The notes under the pieces: model-generated
Seen by the model: the letters and a program-made list of their open reading frames with translations, nothing else
Told to the model about the DNA's origin: nothing
The model's database searches: none
In this document: in pieces, positions 8,356 through 16,464 of the stretch
How positions within the stretch are numbered: position 1 is the stretch's first letter
Layout of the letters: every line of letters begins with the position of its first letter
Source of the DNA: an uncultured Weeksellaceae bacterium
GTDB lineage: Bacteria > Bacteroidota > Bacteroidia > Flavobacteriales_F > PHOS-HE28
Direction: 5' to 3'
Assembly: GCA_964585605.1 (NCBI GenBank)
Contig: CAZPEQ010000001.1
Location: 1 to 26,490, forward strand
DNA length: 26,490 nucleotides
Translations under genes and position numbers: made by a program

Positions 8356-10800
8356 TTAATCTTGCTGGCTTTTTTCAGCTTCGTCTCCTTTCTTCCGCTT
8401 CCGACGGCCGTAACCGTAGCCGTAACCATAGCCATACCCGTAGCCACTGCCGTAACCATAAGCATAGCGGTATCCATAACCGTAGTTGGTATTGTAATAG
8501 TATTTTGATTTCTTGATGCGCACCCCGTTCAGTATAAAGCCAAAGTTCTGCACCGGGTTTTGCTCAAACACTTCTAGGGCATTCTTCAAATGATCCTTGC
8601 TGGCGAAACGCGTATTGAGAACGAACATGGTCGCATCAGCATGTTTCATCATGATCAACGCGTCTGTTATCAAACCTACAGGAGGGGTATCGATGATCAC
8701 GTAATCATACACTCCCACGCCGTACTCGAATATTTCCTCTAAGTGCTTACTCAAAACCAATTCAGACGCATTCGGGGGAGTTGGTCCTGACAACATCACA
8801 TCGAAATTCTCAATATGTGTGTTTTGGATACCACTTTCGATAGAAGCCTTACCGACCAGAATACTGCTTAGCCCTTTTTCAGCCGTCATATTCAACCCTT
8901 TACTCACCTTGGGCTTATGTAAGTCTAACTCAAGCAACAAGACCTTCTTTCCTGCTTTAGCAAGGATGGCACTTAGGTTTACTGAACAGAAGGTTTTTCC
9001 TTCATTCGGTCTATAGGAGGTTACGAGTACCACCTTTCCACGCGACCGATCGGTTGGGATATACTCCAAATTTGTGCGGATCGTCCTGAAGGATTCTGTA
9101 ATGGCGGCCTTGGGGTCACTGTCCACAACAATGTAATTCTGCTCAGCTTTTTCAGAGGCTATCACTTCTCCAAACAACGGCACATTTGACAGTTCTTTCA
9201 ACTGATCGCCATTCTCAATCCGCTCATAGAACATGACCCGAATGAAAATAAAGATGAGTGATAGAAGCAAACCTCCTATTGCAAACGTGTAGATGATTTT
9301 TACGCGATCCGGTCTTACCACACCAACAGAACGTGCAGATTCGATCACTTTCGTCTGTGGAATGATACCTGCTCGTGCAATGACTGTATTCGCACGCTTC
9401 TCAAGTAGAAATAGGTACAACCGCTCATTCACCTGCACCTTACGCTGTATCTCTAAGATATCACGTTGTGATTTAGGCACTCTTCGAATCAGTCCCTCAT
9501 AATCAGATATCTGTCCAATTAAGTCACCGATCTTCGCATTAATGGCAATTCTAGAATTGTTGATATACACCAACAAATTGGTCTTATTAAGATCCAATGT
9601 TTCGTCCAGCACATGAATAGCTGGGTTCTCTTCCTTCGCATCGAACAACAGCCGATTACGCTCCAATTGCATAGCGTACAGGTCATTCAACGTTGTCTTC
9701 AGGAACACGTCGTCGTCGAGGATATAGGCTGAAGGTGGTAACAACTTTTCATCCACGTTATTGGTCAAGTATTCTTCCAACGAATTGAGCGAGGCTATTT
9801 TTAGTTCTTCCCTACGCTTCTCGTTATCAAAACGCACGAGTTCTCCAAAGTACCGGTTCTCCTCTCGGTCTAGGTCGAGGATATCCTCGCTCTCTTTGTA
9901 TGACTGCAATTCATCTTCAAAATCATTCAAGATGATACTGACCTCATCGATCTGTTTGTTGATATAGACCAAGGTATTTTCGTTGATATCGAACTCACTC
10001 TGCAAAGTGTAGTCGATGTAAACCTTGGAGAGCGAATCCAGAAAAGTCTTCGCCCTGCTCGCAAGCTCATCTTCAACGGTAATTTCAAGGATAGTTGTAT
10101 AGTCTATGTTCTCCACAAGCAACCGCTGCTTGAATTTATTCACTAGCCATCCGCGGTTATGCGCGACGAACTGGTAGTCCGCTTTGGACAGCTCTTCCAT
10201 CGTAGAGGGAGAGATCTGCTCGCTTGGGGTCACCCTCAGTTTAAAGTCCCTTTCTACTATGTCTTGGTTAAACGGATAAACTTTATTGATCACGCCATTC
10301 CCTTTGTCATAACTCAACTCGAAATGATTCACATCCTTTATTTTCAGGTCGAATGGCTTCTGGTACAAGCCGCCATTCAGTCGCTCTACTTGAACTTTGA
10401 AGGGCAAGGATGAATTTTTCTCCTCATACATCTCGGTCGTTTTGAACCGACCGATGTTGTAATAAGCCACATCAAAATTCAGTTTGGCCAACGTAGCCCC
10501 GATAAGGTCATGGCTGGTTAGCACCCTTTTTTGGTTAACGATATCGCCATAAGCACCGATATAACCAATGTTCTGATAAACTTGGCTCTGGTAATTATAC
10601 GTATCTCTATCCTTCAACAGAATCTGAGTGCGAGCACCGTAAACCTCAGGAAGTTTATAGGAATACAACAGACTTAGCACAATGGCCAATATGATCGCAA
10701 TGACCACGAAATACCAATTTTTCGAAAAAATCCGAAAAAAGTACCTCAGGTCACCTGCATCTATGATCGCGCCTTTGGAGCGGTTACTTTTCTTTGCCAT
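8356..10800 (-). CDS. wzc: Wzc-type polysaccharide co-polymerase / BY tyrosine kinase (814 aa)
   Basis: Two TM segments (WYFVVIAIILAIVLSLLY; IIYTFAIGGLLLSLIFIFI) flank a coiled-coil periplasmic region. Also ESFRTIRTNL, Walker A TSYRPNEGKT, Walker A' LELDLHKP, Walker B VIIDTPP and a C-terminal Tyr cluster. Start moved to ATG 10800 (MAKKSN) because the track's TTG at 10848 falls inside a -7 promoter box. Confidence 0.93.
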   Translation of the reverse strand: MAKKSNRSKGAIIDAGDLRYFFRIFSKNWYFVVIAIILAIVLSLLYSYKLPEVYGARTQILLKDRDTYNYQSQVYQNIGYIGAYGDIVNQKRVLTSHDLIGATLAKLNFDVAYYNIGRFKTTEMYEEKNSSLPFKVQVERLNGGLYQKPFDLKIKDVNHFELSYDKGNGVINKVYPFNQDIVERDFKLRVTPSEQISPSTMEELSKADYQFVAHNRGWLVNKFKQRLLVENIDYTTILEITVEDELASRAKTFLDSLSKVYIDYTLQSEFDINENTLVYINKQIDEVSIILNDFEDELQSYKESEDILDLDREENRYFGELVRFDNEKRREELKIASLNSLEEYLTNNVDEKLLPPSAYILDDDVFLKTTLNDLYAMQLERNRLLFDAKEENPAIHVLDETLDLNKTNLLVYINNSRIAINAKIGDLIGQISDYEGLIRRVPKSQRDILEIQRKVQVNERLYLFLLEKRANTVIARAGIIPQTKVIESARSVGVVRPDRVKIIYTFAIGGLLLSLIFIFIRVMFYERIENGDQLKELSNVPLFGEVIASEKAEQNYIVVDSDPKAAITESFRTIRTNLEYIPTDRSRGKVVLVTSYRPNEGKTFCSVNLSAILAKAGKKVLLLELDLHKPKVSKGLNMTAEKGLSSILVGKASIESGIQNTHIENFDVMLSGPTPPNASELVLSKHLEEIFEYGVGVYDYVIIDTPPVGLITDALIMMKHADATMFVLNTRFASKDHLKNALEVFEQNPVQNFGFILNGVRIKKSKYYYNTNYGYGYRYAYGYGSGYGYGYGYGYGYGRRKRKKGDEAEKSQQD
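8407..8502 (-). repeat. (Tyr-Gly)n low-complexity tail of Wzc
   Basis: Encodes YYYNTNYGYGYRYAYGYGSGYGYGYGYGYGYG, 15 Tyr in 32 codons. The DNA is an imperfect 6-bp repeat (TAY GGN). Confidence 0.95.
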
Positions 10801-10845
10801 GCAGTTGAAAAGAAAGCCGAGCTCATAGTAGAACCCGGCAGCGTG

Positions 10846-10853
10846 CAAATATA
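10846..10853 (-). promoter_or_regulatory. Bacteroidetes -7 box (TATATTTG) for the wzc-wzm-wzt-sulfotransferase operon
   Basis: Plus-strand CAAATATA is an exact TAnnTTTG on the minus strand, 45 bp upstream of ATG 10800. Confidence 0.6.
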
Positions 10854-10943
10854 CGTTTCTTCATATGTTTTGCCCCTAAAGTGACCCTTGAATGGAATCT
10901 TCGTCTTAAACTTGTTTCCAACCTACAGATGAAATGGCGAATT

Positions 10944-10981
10944 TGTAGAAATTCCAACCTTGCTTCAGCAAAATTTCTACA
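10944..10981. repeat. Perfect 10-bp inverted repeat (TGTAGAAATT-N18-AATTTCTACA); candidate operator
   Basis: Arms at 10944-10953 and 10972-10981. The right arm overlaps the -7 box at 10978-10985. Confidence 0.55.
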
Positions 10982-10985
10982 TTTG
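10978..10985 (+). promoter_or_regulatory. Bacteroidetes -7 box (TACATTTG) for the PID-CTERM/exosortase cassette
   Basis: Exact TAnnTTTG 18 bp upstream of ATG 11004, which supports that start over the track's 10881. Confidence 0.65.
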
Positions 10986-11003
10986 CCCCCTGAGTGCGCT
11001 AAC

Positions 11004-11225
11004 ATGAACAGGAAAAGTAAGCTTTTAGCTTTAGTAGCAATGCTAATAGCTCCTGCTACGTACATAGCTACAATGGCCCAAGGAGGCCCTCCTGTAGGAG
11101 GAACACCGCCTTGCTGGCCACCGCCTTGTATACCTATTGATGGGGGATTGGGCTTCTTGCTGGTAGCGGGCGCTGCTTTTGGTGCTAAAAAAGTGATGGA
11201 CCTGAAGAAAGGGTCAACCAAATAG
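11004..11225 (+). CDS. Small secreted protein with a PID-CTERM-type sorting signal (73 aa)
   Basis: MNRKSKLLALVAMLIAPATYIATMA|QGGPPVGGTPPCWPPPCIPIDGG-LGFLLVAGAAFGA-KKVMDLKK: signal peptide, Pro-rich spacer, PIDGG motif, TM helix and basic tail. This is the tripartite PEP-CTERM-like layout, and it lies 8 bp upstream of an exosortase. Confidence 0.85.
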   Translation: MNRKSKLLALVAMLIAPATYIATMAQGGPPVGGTPPCWPPPCIPIDGGLGFLLVAGAAFGAKKVMDLKKGSTK

Positions 11226-11233
11226 GTCTGGAG

Positions 11234-11770
11234 GTGCTCCGTGACCCTCTGTCTAGATTTCTTTTTTACCTAGGAGCGTTCGTGCTCCTCTGGTTTCTAC
11301 TATACAAATTTGTGCTTGACCCGTCGGGTAGATTGGATTTGTGGCTTATTGACAGAATCAAGGCACAATCAGAATGGCTACTTCAGTTTTTAGGTTATCA
11401 GCTACTACCTGAATCATCTAATGTAGAAGGCGACCGCTATATTGGTATACAGGGAGGGCATTACCTGTGGATTGGAAATTCATGCAATGGCCTGAGCATT
11501 TTCGCATACTTCTCTGCTTTTATCTTGGCCTTCCCTGGCAGCTGGAAGCATAAACTGTGGTTCATGCCACTCGGCATTCTCCTTATTCATGGTGTGAACG
11601 TTATTCGAGTGGCCGCGTTGTGCATTGTTGTGAAAGTGGATCCGGATCTGCTGAGTTTAAACCACGACGCCATCTTCTACATCGTCGTATATAGCTTTGT
11701 TATTGGGCTTTGGTTCTGGTGGGTAAAGCAATACGGCAACCTGAAAGCCGAGTTACGCGATGAAACGTAA
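11234..11770 (+). CDS. Exosortase-family protein (Bacteroidetes XrtF/XrtX-like)
   Basis: Multi-TM protein with the exosortase/archaeosortase catalytic pattern: WIGNSCNGL (Cys), VNVIRVAAL (Arg) and NHDAIFY (His). The exact subfamily cannot be assigned without HMMs. Confidence 0.88.
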   Translation: MLRDPLSRFLFYLGAFVLLWFLLYKFVLDPSGRLDLWLIDRIKAQSEWLLQFLGYQLLPESSNVEGDRYIGIQGGHYLWIGNSCNGLSIFAYFSAFILAFPGSWKHKLWFMPLGILLIHGVNVIRVAALCIVVKVDPDLLSLNHDAIFYIVVYSFVIGLWFWWVKQYGNLKAELRDET

Positions 11771-12224
11771 TATTCAATTAGCGGGGTTGTTGATAGCAGG
11801 CTTTTTATTGGGCCACGCTAGGGAGTTTTTAGCGTACAACGTCAATTACCAGATCGATCACGTTTCGCGCAACACCCCTTTTTCGTACGCGCACTCAAAA
11901 TTCCAAGCTGTATTCGGCTCATTGAACATAACTCAACTTACTGGCCTAAAGTGGTTCATCGCTGGAGTCGTGGTTCTGGGTATGCTGTCGTTGACTGTAA
12001 TATTGGGCCGCGTATTGTTCAACGGTGGCAAATACACTAAAATGTTAGTCGCTGGCTATTCGTTGACCGCATTTACCGCTTTATTACTGCACCTACTGAC
12101 CAATTACAATGAAGGGTTCAAAATGGCAGGGGTACAACTACTACACGCCTTGCAATACCCTGTTTTGATGTTCGTGTTGATATTGGCTTCCCCGCTGGCG
12201 AAGTTCAGTCGACCCACAACCTAA
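11760..12224 (+). CDS. Exosortase-associated 4-TM membrane protein
   Basis: Start overlaps the exosortase 3' end by 11 nt. Four hydrophobic segments, including [16 protein letters not shown]. Small membrane partners commonly follow Bacteroidetes exosortases; function unknown. Confidence 0.7.
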
Positions 12225-12247: not shown

Positions 12248-13522
12248 ATGAGCAGAGACACTACGATTTTCAACCTGATCGAGCAGGAACGACATCGTCA
12301 AACGGTTGGCGTAGAGCTAATTGCATCGGAGAACTACGTTTCTGACCAAGTTATGGAAGCCATGGGTTCCGTGTTAACCAACAAATATGCCGAAGGGCTT
12401 CCCAACAAACGCTATTACGGTGGCTGTCAAATAGTTGACCAAGTGGAGCAACTCGCCATTGATCGAATCAAAGAATTGTTCAATGCCGATTGGGCCAATG
12501 TGCAACCTCATAGCGGTGCGCAGGCGAATGCCGCAGTCATGTTAGGTTTCCTTAACCCGGGAGACACCATTTTAGGCTTTGACCTCAGCCATGGCGGACA
12601 CTTAACCCATGGATCTACGGTGAACTTCAGCGGCAAGTTGTATCGGCCAACCTTCTACGGCGTAGAAAAAGACACGGGGTTGATCGACATGGATCGAGTT
12701 GAGGCCATTGCCAAGCAGGAGAATCCGCGGATGATAATTTGCGGAGCTAGTGCCTATTCCAGAGATTGGGATTATGAACGGTTCCGGAGCATTGCCGATG
12801 AAGTGGGAGCCGTATTGTTAGCCGATATCAGTCATCCCGCAGGGTTGATCGCTGGAGGTATTTTGAAAGACCCTCTTCCGCATTGTCATGTGGTCACAAC
12901 CACAACACATAAAACCTTACGCGGGCCTAGAGGAGGCCTGATCATGGTTGGAAAAGATGGGCAGAACAGTTGGGGCATCAAAACGGCAAAGGGTACTGTG
13001 CGCAAGATATCATCGATACTAGACAGTGCCGTTTTTCCTGGGACTCAAGGAGGACCCTTGGAGCATGTAATAGCAGCCAAAGCCGTGGCGTTTGGAGAAG
13101 CGCTAACACCTGCCTACCGCGCCTATTGTGTACGTGTGATCGCCAATGCACAAGCCATGACCAAGGCATTCGTTGCAAAAGGTTATCACGTGATCAGCGG
13201 TGGAACGGATAACCATTGCATGCTGATTGATCTGCGCAATAAAGGAATCACGGGCAAGGAAGCTGAAACTGCACTTGTGGCGGCAGACTTGACCGTTAAC
13301 AAGAACATGGTTCCGTTCGATGACCAGAGTCCTTTTGTGACAAGCGGTATACGTATTGGAACTCCTGCTATAACCACCCGCGGGGTGAATGAAGCGGAGT
13401 GTGAGCAGATCGTAGATATGATCGACCGTGTTGTGGTAGATCATACGAATGAATCTGCAATAGCGGCCATACGGGAGGAAGCGAACCAATTGATGAAGGA
13501 CAAACCCCTGTTCCTGCCTTGA
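12248..13522 (+). CDS. glyA: Serine hydroxymethyltransferase
   Basis: [41 protein letters not shown] and [14 protein letters not shown] (PLP Lys), plus [17 protein letters not shown] and SGIRIGTPA. Confidence 0.98.
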
Positions 13523-13902
13523 GAGACATTGAATCCAGAGAAGACCTCACCCACGTTCTGACCGCATTCTATGCCAGAGCCTTTGAAGATGACCTGATCG
13601 GCCCATTCTTCACGGAGGTGGCGCAACTCGACCTTGACGCACACCTTCCTGTTATCACAGATTTTTGGGAGTCGATACTATTCGGATCCGTCCGTTACCA
13701 AGGCAACGTCATGCACAAGCATTTGGTAATGGATAAAACGAAGATCATGAAGCAGGCCCACTTCGACCGATGGCTAGATCTATTCTCTAATGCGCTAACA
13801 GCGCATCATGCGGGTATGAAAACAGACGAAATGTTGGAGCGCGCAAAACTCATTGCCGTGACAATGGCCTATAAAATCGAAGCTTTTCGGAACACCAACT
13901 GA
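13519..13902 (+). CDS. Group III truncated hemoglobin
   Basis: [38 protein letters not shown] and HFDRWLDLF match the 2/2 hemoglobin group III pattern. TTG start overlaps the glyA stop. Confidence 0.88.
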
Positions 13903-14686
13903 CCAACTGACCCAGTTTTGCCAATGTCCTCTCCGACATCCAAATGGTGTAGCAAGCCATGAAGGCCAAGGCCATATCGGGAATTTCCACTGCATAAGCT
14001 GTTCCCAAATGGAAGCACACCCCAATCAGCAACACGGCGTTCCTGATTGCTTTGAACCAGATCCCGACAACAAAAAACAACTGAAAGCCTAGTGACACAT
14101 AGGTCAGTATGATTGCTAAAGTGGGTAGCTCTTGTAGAAATCCTAAATGAAAGGTAGGATCTGAAGCCAGCACGGAAAGCGCTTTTCCGCTGAGCCAATC
14201 CTCGCCTTGTAGTTTATGCAGGAACGTGCTTAAATAGACAAGCACCAGCTGCAACCGGGCTGCCCATGATGCGAATTGTCTTATTCTTACATGTTCATTT
14301 TGACGAAGGGAAAGTGGAATGCACCACAACAGCATGATCGCTACCAACTGCTGCCCTCCGGTGCTTACCATCCATCCTCTCGCGATCAAAATCACGTAAG
14401 CGCCCCATATCAGAACCGAGGTCCAGACCATTGGTTTCCGCAAGGCCGAATACCCAGCAGCAGCAATACCACAAAACGGCAGGGCAATCCAAAATCCCAA
14501 AGGCATGCTGTAAGCGAGATCCACCAGCCACGAAATCGGCCCTCCTGAAAACTGTAAGCGCGGTGAAACGGGATCAAACCACAGTTTACCCGAAACGGTC
14601 AAACAATAACTCAAGAACAACGCGGTCCACAAATGCAAGGCCCTAACGAAGAGTTTCTGTGCCTGTATGCTTACCTGAGGAATCAT
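13850..14686 (-). CDS. HTTM-domain membrane protein (SdpB / vitamin K-dependent carboxylase TM-domain homolog)
   Basis: About seven hydrophobic segments. RLQLVLVYLSTFLHKLQGEDWLSGKAL and GVCFHLG follow the HTTM Q...Y......K...W..G and FH pattern. Start overlaps the upstream stop (ATGA). Confidence 0.82.
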   Translation of the reverse strand: MIPQVSIQAQKLFVRALHLWTALFLSYCLTVSGKLWFDPVSPRLQFSGGPISWLVDLAYSMPLGFWIALPFCGIAAAGYSALRKPMVWTSVLIWGAYVILIARGWMVSTGGQQLVAIMLLWCIPLSLRQNEHVRIRQFASWAARLQLVLVYLSTFLHKLQGEDWLSGKALSVLASDPTFHLGFLQELPTLAIILTYVSLGFQLFFVVGIWFKAIRNAVLLIGVCFHLGTAYAVEIPDMALAFMACYTIWMSERTLAKLGQLVSWCSEKLRFYRPLSRQ

Positions 14687-15138
14687 TCCTGATCGAGCGC
14701 ATCAATCCAAAGAACACGCTGACCATCTATTTCATCAAAACAGGTCCTGCGCACGTGAACTTCAGGTCTCTCCTGCTCTGTTAAGGCACGTATGTAATCT
14801 TGAAACCCTGGCCACGCCTTAAGATCAGCTTCTCCTTTGGCAGAGTCACGATAATTAGACATGCTTCTGCACCCCCATTTTACAATACGCCTGCCCAGCA
14901 GATTCTCTCCTTCTGCAAGATCTCGGGTAACACCTTCCTCATCTGTAATCGTCAAAGTGCATCCACATGGCGGAACATCTGGCGCAAATAAATTCCATTG
15001 CTGATGAAATAAGGGTCGTGTATAGCTTGTTGACCAGAACTGTAGCCGTGCAGGAATCAATTCTTGTGGCAAGGCATAACACGCTAAGATCAGCGTATGT
15101 ACCAATGCCAAGATGAACGGCCAATTCTTCTTCCACAT
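14683..15138 (-). CDS. DUF5819-like / SdpA-like small membrane-anchored protein
   Basis: N-terminal hydrophobic segment then YTRPLFHQQWNLFAPDVP. The QxWxLFAP motif is recalled for small partners that precede HTTM genes. Translationally coupled to the HTTM gene. Confidence 0.72.
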   Translation of the reverse strand: MWKKNWPFILALVHTLILACYALPQELIPARLQFWSTSYTRPLFHQQWNLFAPDVPPCGCTLTITDEEGVTRDLAEGENLLGRRIVKWGCRSMSNYRDSAKGEADLKAWPGFQDYIRALTEQERPEVHVRRTCFDEIDGQRVLWIDALDQE

Positions 15139-15183
15139 TCAATCTCCTTTGAGAGTTCGTTCCGCTATGCGACCTTTGCCACA

Positions 15184-16464
15184 ATGAGCACCAATATAGC
15201 CGCAAATAACCCTTCACTTAAGTCTTGGGTCAACATTCCCGCAGATAGTGATTTTCCCATACAGAATATCCCTTTCGGTATATTCAGCACATCAAGTAAA
15301 ACCGCTAGAACGGGTGTTCGCATTGGCGATACGGTCGTTGACCTTTCAGAGCTTGCGCAAGCAGGGCTTCTTCAGGTAGACGGTGTGGATCAAACGCACT
15401 ATTCCAACAATACCTTAAATGCGCTTATGGGAGCGGGCAAACAGGGCATGCGCGATCTGCGCAATCGCCTAAGTAGCTTACTGCAATTGGGAAATGCCGA
15501 ATTGCAGGGCAATGCAGACCTTCTGGCTGTAGCTATGATACCTGTGGCAGATGCGAATATGCATATGCCAGTGCACGTTGGAGATTACACTGACTTCTAC
15601 AGCAGTCGCGAGCATGCAACAAATGTGGGTACCATGTTCCGCGATCCAGACAATGCCTTGCTTCCTAATTGGTTGCACTTGCCCGTTGGCTACCACGGCA
15701 GGAGCTCTTCCATCATTGTTTCAGGAGAACCCGTGCGCAGGCCTTCAGGCCAGACCAAGGCTGATGATGCCGCGGCACCTTCGTTCGGGGCAAGTCGTTT
15801 ACTTGATTTCGAATTGGAAATGGCCTTCGTGACCTTTGAGGGCAAACCCATGGGCGAGCGCATAACAACGGCAGAAGCAGATGACCACATCTTCGGCATG
15901 GTGCTGTTCAATGATTGGAGTGCGCGCGATATCCAAAAATGGGAGTATGTTCCCTTAGGCCCTTTCCTAGCGAAGAACTTTGCCAGTAGCATCAGCCCTT
16001 GGATCGTAACGTTGGATGCATTGGAACCTTTTCGCACCAGCGGCTATACACAAGAGCCGGAGGTTCTTCCATATCTAAAATATGAAGGAGACAAGAATAT
16101 CGACATTAACCTACAGGTAGCGATCCAACCAAACGGAGCCGAAGAAAATGTTGTCTGTAATAGTAATTACAAGCATATGTACTGGACAGCAGAACAACAG
16201 CTTACCCACCACTCCGTTGGGGGATGCAACATTCGCTGTGGCGATATGATGGCAAGTGGCACCATAAGTGGACCAACACCTGATAGCTACGGCAGTATGC
16301 TAGAGCTTTCTTGGCGCGGAACCAAACCACTTACGCTTGCAGATGGTAGCGAACGCAAATTCATTGCGGACGGAGATACGGTGATCATGCGCGGGCATGC
16401 GTCAAAAGACGGTGTGCGTGTTGGATTTGGAGAAGTACGTTCAAAAGTGCTTCCTGCCCTCTGA
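15184..16464 (+). CDS. fahA: Fumarylacetoacetase
   Basis: SDFPIQNIPFG, GDYTDFYSSREHATNVG, HLPVGYHGRSSS, LDFELEMA, NDWSARDIQKWEYVPLGPFLAKNF and ASGTISG. Start moved to ATG 15184 because the track's 15097 overlaps the divergent gene. Confidence 0.96.
   Translation: MSTNIAANNPSLKSWVNIPADSDFPIQNIPFGIFSTSSKTARTGVRIGDTVVDLSELAQAGLLQVDGVDQTHYSNNTLNALMGAGKQGMRDLRNRLSSLLQLGNAELQGNADLLAVAMIPVADANMHMPVHVGDYTDFYSSREHATNVGTMFRDPDNALLPNWLHLPVGYHGRSSSIIVSGEPVRRPSGQTKADDAAAPSFGASRLLDFELEMAFVTFEGKPMGERITTAEADDHIFGMVLFNDWSARDIQKWEYVPLGPFLAKNFASSISPWIVTLDALEPFRTSGYTQEPEVLPYLKYEGDKNIDINLQVAIQPNGAEENVVCNSNYKHMYWTAEQQLTHHSVGGCNIRCGDMMASGTISGPTPDSYGSMLELSWRGTKPLTLADGSERKFIADGDTVIMRGHASKDGVRVGFGEVRSKVLPAL

Follow-up and report, generated by a model that had tools for sequence, protein, structure and literature searches.

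Proteins of the HTTM family are widespread in bacteria, and in the literature surveyed an activity is reported only for the animal vitamin K-dependent carboxylase (GGCX in humans) and for MloH, an enzyme of the malonomycin pathway of Streptomyces that is a natural fusion of HTTM and DUF5819-like modules (10.64898/2026.08.19.745780; PMC12647623). MloH carboxylates an aspartyl residue, and the mechanism of CO2 fixation is said to be conserved in the bacterial orthologues (PMC12647623). For the DUF5819 partner there is so far (August 2026) only a hypothesis from structure prediction, in which a DUF5819/HTTM pair of Melghirimyces thermohalophilus is modelled with AlphaFold 3 as a split vitamin K-dependent carboxylase (bioRxiv 10.64898/2026.08.19.745780). 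In that model the DUF5819 helix lies on a GGCX transmembrane helix, its domain takes up the clamp position, and Leu59 and Phe60 touch the modelled menaquinol near the conserved Lys, Trp and Phe; an HTTM-DCC fusion is also reported in Melghirimyces (10.64898/2026.08.19.745780). A further two-gene system, SdpA and SdpB of Bacillus subtilis, is needed if SdpC is to be matured to the SDP toxin (PMC6818787). We have analysed here a pair of genes of this general kind in the DNA of an uncultured Weeksellaceae bacterium (assembly GCA_964585605.1, contig CAZPEQ010000001.1, positions 1 to 26,490; this whole stretch of 26,490 nucleotides is referred to as the window). The two genes are as follows.

14683-15138, minus strand: small-subunit gene, 151 residues, a divergent DUF5819 protein with a predicted membrane anchor at the N terminus and, after it, an alpha/beta domain in the periplasm (from the list of open reading frames, ORFs).
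13850-14686, minus strand: HTTM-subunit gene, 278 residues, a minimal homologue of the catalytic core of vitamin K-dependent carboxylase.
14683-14686, minus strand: ATGA overlap in which the stop of the small gene is joined to the start of the HTTM gene, suggesting translational coupling.

Judged by sequence comparison, this pair is a divergent member of the already annotated DUF5819/HTTM type of gene pair, and not an SdpAB system as its original prediction had proposed. The 151-residue protein scores 20.4 bits against Pfam DUF5819 (PF19136), which is sub-threshold (gathering score 27.1), and residues 37-54 alone match. An alignment of the small protein, searched exhaustively with HMMER against 1.84 billion representatives, found 85 proteins, 76 of which were aligned, and all but one of these 76 match DUF5819 at E <= 0.01 (best E 7.8e-17). 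Comparison by hhalign of the small-protein subfamily of the window with a protein of a Streptomyces parvus plasmid that PGAP/RefSeq annotates as DUF5819 gives a probability of 85.7% and an E of 5.5e-6. No similarity to SdpA was found in Pfam or NCBIfam at E <= 1, nor was there any for the 76 relatives. On these comparisons the small protein is a divergent DUF5819 member and is not SdpA.

The 278-residue protein is by its profile match an HTTM-domain protein, as had been predicted; it passes the gathering score of Pfam HTTM (PF05090; 30.9 bits against 27.7) with a match that spans residues 130-250 only. Against the SdpB family (NCBIfam TIGR04033), the NCBIfam model nearest to it, it scores 23.7 bits, far below the cut-off of 178.4, and together with the DUF5819 assignment of the small protein this removes the SdpAB-like label. 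The HTTM family of the window aligns with an annotated Streptomyces HTTM protein in hhalign with a probability of 99.2% (E 6e-20). A profile made from 50 HTTM partner sequences, the same set that underlies the conservation counts given below, has human GGCX as its sole match in the PDB (E 1.5e-8), profile positions 65-266 falling on GGCX 119-326; a profile of three sequences gave no match there. Close relatives are rare, and a word-indexed search that covered 5.8 billion proteins turned up no more than two further HTTM proteins and four of the small ones.

The alignment with GGCX places the following elements of the HTTM subunit at or near the active site of the carboxylase.

14186-14257, minus strand: segment RLQLVLVYLSTFLHKLQGEDWLSG, residues 144-167, with Lys158 at 14213-14215 and Trp164 at 14195-14197.
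14345-14374, minus strand: loop WMVSTGGQQL, residues 105-114, in place of the WNNH glutamate-binding loop of the carboxylase.
14009-14014, minus strand: Phe225-His226, equivalent to GGCX Phe286-His287.
13973-13987, minus strand: EIPDM, residues 234-238, with Met238 (13973-13975) at the position of GGCX Phe299.

In the first of these segments Gln146, Tyr151, Lys158, Trp164 and Gly167 are invariant in all 50 HTTM sequences. Lys158 aligns with GGCX Lys218 and Trp164 with Trp223, both with high posterior probability in the profile alignment. In the cryo-EM (cryogenic electron microscopy) work on GGCX, Lys218 is the general base that deprotonates the quinol and also makes a hydrogen bond to the quinone, Trp223 stacks on Lys218, and Phe286 stacks beneath the naphthoquinone ring (PMC12647623). 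Phe225 and His226, which lie within CFHLG (residues 224-228) and align with GGCX Phe286 and His287, are present in 47 and 49 of the 50 sequences respectively. The predicted retention of a catalytic-type Lys is thus borne out, and the human motif quoted for that prediction proves exact, corresponding to residues 204-226 of the full-length chain with Lys217/Lys218 as stated. Retention of the Lys is not peculiar to this protein; it is general to the HTTM proteins compared, including actinobacterial ones.

The residues of GGCX that handle CO2 and glutamate have fared differently. Asn159 and His160, which in GGCX hold the glutamate carboxylate (PMC12647623), are not kept. The loop WMVSTGGQQL aligns with GGCX Trp157-Tyr162 with a three-residue insertion, such that Ser108/Thr109 and an inserted G-G-Q stand at the position of Asn159/His160. 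The replacement is itself conserved across the HTTM family as S/T-G-G-Q-Q, and Gly110, Gly111 and Leu114 are each present in 49 of the 50 sequences. This agrees with the prediction that STGGQQL (residues 108-114) occupies the place of the carboxylase NNH, and the large lumenal domain is absent, the prediction having named a large C-terminal domain as missing. The position of GGCX Phe299, a residue that stacks on CO2 (PMC12647623), is occupied by Met238. Met is found here in 46 of the 50 sequences and Phe in the four most distant HTTMs only, and the Streptomyces HTTM protein also has Phe; because the most distant members and the Streptomyces protein keep Phe, the Met is a derived feature of the Bacteroidota family. 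As read from the alignment, then, the family has kept the half of the active site that binds and activates the quinol, and has not kept the half that handles CO2 and glutamate.

The small subunit carries the complete signature of its family, namely a helix with His14 and Tyr21 followed by the motif Y-x-x-P-x-F-H-Q-x-W-x-L-F-A-P, and its elements are arranged as follows.

15070-15123, minus strand: membrane anchor, residues 6-23 (helix 6-22 in the AlphaFold 2 model, hydropathy peak at 7-23).
14980-15024, minus strand: signature motif YTRPLFHQQWNLFAP, residues 39-53, proposed to cap the quinone pocket.
14959-14967, minus strand: Cys58-Gly-Cys60 (CGC), residues 58-60, in the first beta strand of the periplasmic domain.
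14869-14871, minus strand: Cys90, a partner cysteine.
14740-14742, minus strand: Cys133, the other partner cysteine; Cys20 is a further cysteine of this protein.

Among the 76 aligned sequences Phe51 and Pro53 of the signature motif are invariant and Tyr39, Phe44, Gln46, Trp48, Leu50 and Ala52 are each conserved in at least 90%. Within the anchor His14 (74 of 76) and Tyr21 (69 of 76) are near-invariant, which argues for a functional anchor as against a signal that is cleaved off. An AlphaFold 2 model built on the 76 sequences is confident, with a predicted local distance difference test score (pLDDT) of 87.9, and shows helix 6-22, helix 30-44, the conserved loop and an alpha/beta domain. The N-terminal Lys-Lys and the cysteines suggest that the anchor is oriented N-in with the domain in the periplasm. 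The sequence motifs quoted in the original prediction, including CGC and three more cysteines, are all present, although the Cys-rich character is not a feature of the family. The closest subfamily has Cys58 and Cys60 throughout and Cys133 almost throughout, and across the 76 relatives Cys58 co-occurs with Cys133, Cys60 is often found without Cys90, and 29 of the 76 have none of the four. Because of the co-occurrence of Cys58 and Cys133 and the relatives that lack all four, the cysteines are probably structural disulfides of the subfamily and not a catalytic feature of the family.

The pair is conserved as a unit. We scanned a single genome of each GTDB species for the motif of the small protein, using a 22-sequence subset of the DUF5819 alignment, and obtained 52 loci, nearly all from metagenome-assembled genomes labelled Flavobacteriales or Bacteroidetes; a genome scan using the HTTM alignment gave no matches. 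An HTTM homologue lies immediately downstream on the same strand in 47 of the 52 loci (E down to 1e-63), and the two genes overlap by four nucleotides, as ATGA or GTGA, in 39 of 45 loci, with most of the others having a smaller overlap or a gap of 0-3 nucleotides. That the overlap persists at 25-40% protein identity is strong evidence of coupled, stoichiometric synthesis. In most loci the genes for RelA and fumarylacetoacetase lie divergently on one side and those for serine hydroxymethyltransferase and an XrtX-associated protein convergently on the other, with variable insertions of 0-4 kb on either side of the pair. The two closest relatives (L001 and L002, 53-61% identity) are metagenome contigs that share the gene order of the window. 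Most of the loci from GTDB genomes (L003-L049) have a G+C content of 55-68%, as against 47-50% for the window and these two relatives, and the window belongs to a branch of lower G+C and greater divergence, of which the scanned GTDB species genomes include no member.

A comparison of neighbourhoods had been suggested as a way of finding a conserved substrate, and clustering of the ORFs in the gaps of all loci revealed no third gene conserved beside the pair, only variable and partly spurious high-G+C ORFs. The term orphan, which had been applied to the pair, holds in that there is no adjacent precursor gene, but does not hold for a module that is vertically conserved at a fixed position in a whole lineage. 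From these comparisons we conclude that the two genes form a translationally coupled bicistron, which a Bacteroidota lineage keeps as a stable part of its core genome at a fixed housekeeping site. We also note that in three loci the HTTM gene is followed directly, and on its own strand, by a gene for an S-adenosylmethionine-dependent methyltransferase of the Methyltransf_23/11 type (L025:7335-8075, L048:7320-8060 and L005:7359-8153), and that in a fourth (L007:6465-8060) the methyltransferase is fused in frame to the HTTM protein, a fusion that could be an assembly artefact. The pair of the window has no downstream methyltransferase.

Our preferred reading, which we consider evenly poised, is that the pair would constitute a two-subunit enzyme of the inner membrane, carboxylase-like and dependent on quinol and O2, that acts at the periplasmic face and probably does not carry out classical glutamate carboxylation. 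The small subunit would be anchored N-in by its single helix packing against the HTTM helix bundle, its FHQxWxLFAP loop would cap the active site from the periplasmic side, and its disulfide-stabilised alpha/beta domain would replace the lumenal domain of the carboxylase and contribute to substrate binding. The HTTM subunit would bind menaquinol of the host on Phe225, and Lys158, held by Trp164, would deprotonate the quinol, whereupon O2 would yield a strongly basic oxygenated intermediate. This strong base could then remove a proton from a substrate, encoded elsewhere, at the periplasmic membrane interface. Read by the positive-inside rule, the sequence has the conserved HTTM loops all on the periplasmic face, and the conserved residues of the small subunit sit in the membrane helix and the LFAP loop, both as this reading would have it. 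Classical gamma-carboxylation of glutamate is probably not the outcome because Asn159/His160 and Phe299 are replaced by the S/T-G-G-Q-Q loop and Met. The fixed housekeeping context without a precursor or immunity gene speaks for a constitutive envelope function, and against a toxin or natural-product pathway. The two-subunit, possibly quinone-dependent enzyme of the original prediction has gained ground, in that the small protein is a constant, coupled partner and an independent preprint (10.64898/2026.08.19.745780) came to the same view of another DUF5819/HTTM pair.

Several points weigh against this reading. The position of GGCX Asp263, which is the partner of the catalytic Lys and is hydrogen-bonded to the quinone (PMC12647623), is Gln202 in the window protein, and the 50 sequences have Gln in 39 cases and Met in 11. 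No HTTM/DUF5819 pair has a biochemically shown activity. The AlphaFold 2 model of the HTTM subunit, made from an alignment of three sequences, is poor (pLDDT 51.5), and a Foldseek search with it placed GGCX in the top 13 places without significance (E 0.13-0.7, template modelling score about 0.25), a result that we take as no evidence. The small-subunit model had no significant Foldseek neighbour in the PDB, including GGCX (best E 0.38), and a profile hidden Markov model search with DUF5819 gave no match to GGCX. An hhalign comparison of DUF5819 with GGCX 357-523, a stretch checked against the PDB, was likewise not significant (E 0.094, probability 0.6%). The register of this non-significant alignment pairs Tyr21 with Tyr370, Pro29 with Pro378, Phe44 with Tyr395, Trp48 with Trp399, and Leu50/Phe51 with Met401/Met402. 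Tyr395, Met401 and Met402 are GGCX residues that contact glutamate, quinone and CO2, and that Phe44 and Leu50/Phe51 fall on them is suggestive only and serves as a lead. It agrees with the Melghirimyces model, where the Leu and Phe equivalent to Leu50/Phe51 are reported to touch the predicted vitamin K pocket (10.64898/2026.08.19.745780).

A more specific version of the preferred reading, which we regard as doubtful, is that the pair is a constitutive envelope enzyme of a Flavobacteriales-labelled lineage that uses menaquinol/O2 strong-base chemistry for a reaction other than carboxylation. If true, this would be the first non-carboxylating use of the strong-base chemistry of the carboxylase, and its target would be a protein of the envelope, a lipid or else the quinone.

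The alternative that survives best, unlikely as we consider it, is that the pair is a true vitamin K-dependent carboxylase that modifies Glu, or Asp as does MloH, in exported proteins or peptides encoded elsewhere. The conserved quinol-activating Lys, Trp and Phe would be equally at home in such an enzyme, PGAP assigns to HTTM proteins of this sort the Gene Ontology term peptidyl-glutamic acid carboxylation, and both the conservation of the CO2-fixing mechanism in bacterial orthologues and the action of MloH on an aspartyl residue (PMC12647623) are precedents. However, the CO2-stacking Phe299 has become Met in 46 of the 50 sequences while more distant HTTMs retain Phe, a different and conserved loop has replaced Asn159/His160, and no substrate gene is linked to the pair in about 47 loci.

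It is quite unlikely, in our estimation, that what the pair modifies is not a protein but a small molecule of the membrane, be it a lipid or the quinone itself. This would fit an active site at the membrane interface and the lack of a linked protein substrate, and a Methyltransf_11/23-type methyltransferase does follow the HTTM gene in four loci, in one of them fused in frame. Nonetheless, these are four of about 47 loci, the window is not among them, and the fused case, as already said, could be an artefact; there is also no biochemical precedent for an HTTM protein in this role.

We regard as decidedly unlikely a thiol/disulfide-quinone oxidoreductase similar to DsbB or VKOR, in which electrons from periplasmic substrates would travel by way of the small subunit's cysteines to a quinone bound by the HTTM subunit. 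The CxC that directly follows the pocket-capping loop and is invariant in the closest subfamily could be read in this way, as could the fusion or proximity of HTTM to DCC/DUF393 domains in Melghirimyces and Streptomyces. Against it, a pathway through the four cysteines would be missing from 29 of the 76 DUF5819 relatives, the co-occurrence of Cys58 and Cys133 fits a structural disulfide, the HTTM subunit has no conserved cysteine in the 50 sequences, and the window pair has neither a DCC domain nor a DCC neighbour. Finally, a maturation or export machine of the SdpAB type for a secreted toxin peptide is very improbable, for although SdpB is the nearest NCBIfam model for 45 of the 50 HTTM relatives (best E 1.7e-32) and the role of SdpA and SdpB in SdpC processing in Bacillus subtilis offers a precedent (PMC6818787), all scores lie far below the SdpB cut-off, neither the small protein nor any of its 76 relatives matches SdpA, no SdpC-like precursor or SdpI/SdpR-like gene lies beside the pair, and its fixed housekeeping position in about 47 species is unlike that of the strain-variable toxin loci (PMC6818787).

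What is new about this locus is that a DUF5819/HTTM pair occurs as a stable, coupled core-genome module in a Bacteroidota lineage, and not just as an accessory or biosynthetic-cluster element. The invariance of the quinol-activating residues together with the systematic replacement of the CO2 and glutamate residues makes a testable prediction of repurposed chemistry, and the minimal form of the pair (151 plus 278 residues) would lend itself well to structure determination and to an assay for quinone epoxide. Its function, if found, would tell what the catalytic core of the carboxylase does in bacteria.

The immediate surroundings of the pair are tightly packed, with the two following junctions at its ends.

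15139-15183: divergent spacer of 45 nucleotides between the small gene and the fumarylacetoacetase gene, containing an AAGGAG box.
13850-13902: convergent overlap of 53 nucleotides in which the HTTM gene, at its 3' end, runs into a globin-like ORF.

In the ORF list the neighbours called between 11234 and 21467 all lie on the plus strand, opposite to the pair, and encode an exosortase, an XrtX-associated membrane protein, serine hydroxymethyltransferase, the globin-like ORF, fumarylacetoacetase, RelA/SpoT, Fur, a STAS protein, adenylosuccinate synthetase and a glutamine amidotransferase. The coupling by an ATGA overlap and the opposite orientation to the neighbours, both of which had been noted originally, are confirmed by the ORF list and the junction. 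The fumarylacetoacetase ORF is listed mechanically with a start at 15097, inside the small gene, whereas the real start is most likely the ATG at 15184, given the length of its homologue in L001 (426 residues) and the extent of the Pfam match. With a divergent spacer of 45 nucleotides, one promoter or more must be located within the coding region of a neighbour, and this spacer together with the 53-nucleotide overlap downstream leaves no coding space beside the pair for a precursor gene, in keeping with the original observation that none is adjacent. The AAGGAG box (15144-15149, minus strand) resembles a Shine-Dalgarno site and lies five nucleotides upstream of the ATG of the small gene; such sites are unusual in Bacteroidota, which mostly do without them.

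The globin-like ORF (13519-13902, plus strand) scores a sub-threshold 18.7 bits against Pfam Bac_globin, and its listed TTG start overlaps the stop of serine hydroxymethyltransferase by four nucleotides. L001 and L002, the two closest relatives, share the ORF and its 53-nucleotide convergent overlap, neither of which was detected in the GTDB loci. The putatively O2-dependent enzyme thus has a possible O2-binding protein as its neighbour. Further away, positions 861-12224 form a cluster for polysaccharide synthesis and export that encodes a WbqC-like protein, a DegT aminotransferase, a formyltransferase, a GT2 glycosyltransferase, two sulfotransferases, an ABC-2 transporter and a Wzz/tyrosine-kinase protein, and then the exosortase and the XrtX-associated membrane protein. 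L001 has, in addition, a gene for a PID-CTERM protein in the corresponding place.

Both genes of the pair are real by the measure of their homologues, since paired homologues of both are found in about 50 other genomes (E down to 1e-63 for the HTTM protein and 1e-23 for the small protein). In view of the even base composition of the window and of the conserved synteny we reject chance ORFs or a mobile island. The window is of algae-associated metagenome origin, and the runs that contain its sequence are all DNA runs of an algae metagenome.

The SdpA and SdpB genes of Bacillus subtilis likewise consist of a small-protein gene followed by a gene for an HTTM-type membrane protein, but the window pair lacks sdpC-like precursor and immunity genes and is lineage-wide and syntenic, not strain-variable. 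GGCX is a single chain of 758 residues with a large lumenal domain, whereas the window encodes a core of 278 residues and a separate protein of 151 residues; there is no propeptide-bearing substrate nearby, and the GGCX residues Asn159/His160, Asp263 and Phe299 are not conserved. Homology between DUF5819 and the lumenal part of GGCX is not demonstrable by sequence or fold search.

The closest resemblance in organisation is to a DUF5819/HTTM pair on plasmid pG-2_2 of Streptomyces parvus (NZ_CP135078, L055, 3904-6849; RNL97_RS00215/RS00220), in which the small gene again comes first and overlaps the HTTM gene by four nucleotides. The annotated pairs of Streptomyces and Melghirimyces have in common with the window the membrane helix, the QxWxLFAP motif and the Lys, Trp and Phe-His of the HTTM subunit. 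However, the window proteins are shorter (151 against 212 residues for the small subunit, and 278 against 347-447 for the HTTM subunit), and only the window pair has Met at the Phe299 position, the CxC signature of its subfamily and a sub-threshold DUF5819 score. The Streptomyces plasmid also carries, 0.9 kb downstream, a gene for a DUF393 protein (a DCC-type putative thiol-disulfide oxidoreductase), whereas the window has no DCC/DUF393 domain or neighbour. The annotated pairs lie on a plasmid or in an accessory region, and the window pair occupies a fixed chromosomal housekeeping site. MloH, which we liken to the window pair by description only, is one fused protein, encoded within a cluster of biosynthetic genes, whereas the window pair is split and has no such cluster; MloH nevertheless shows that this type of enzyme can act on substrates other than Glu.

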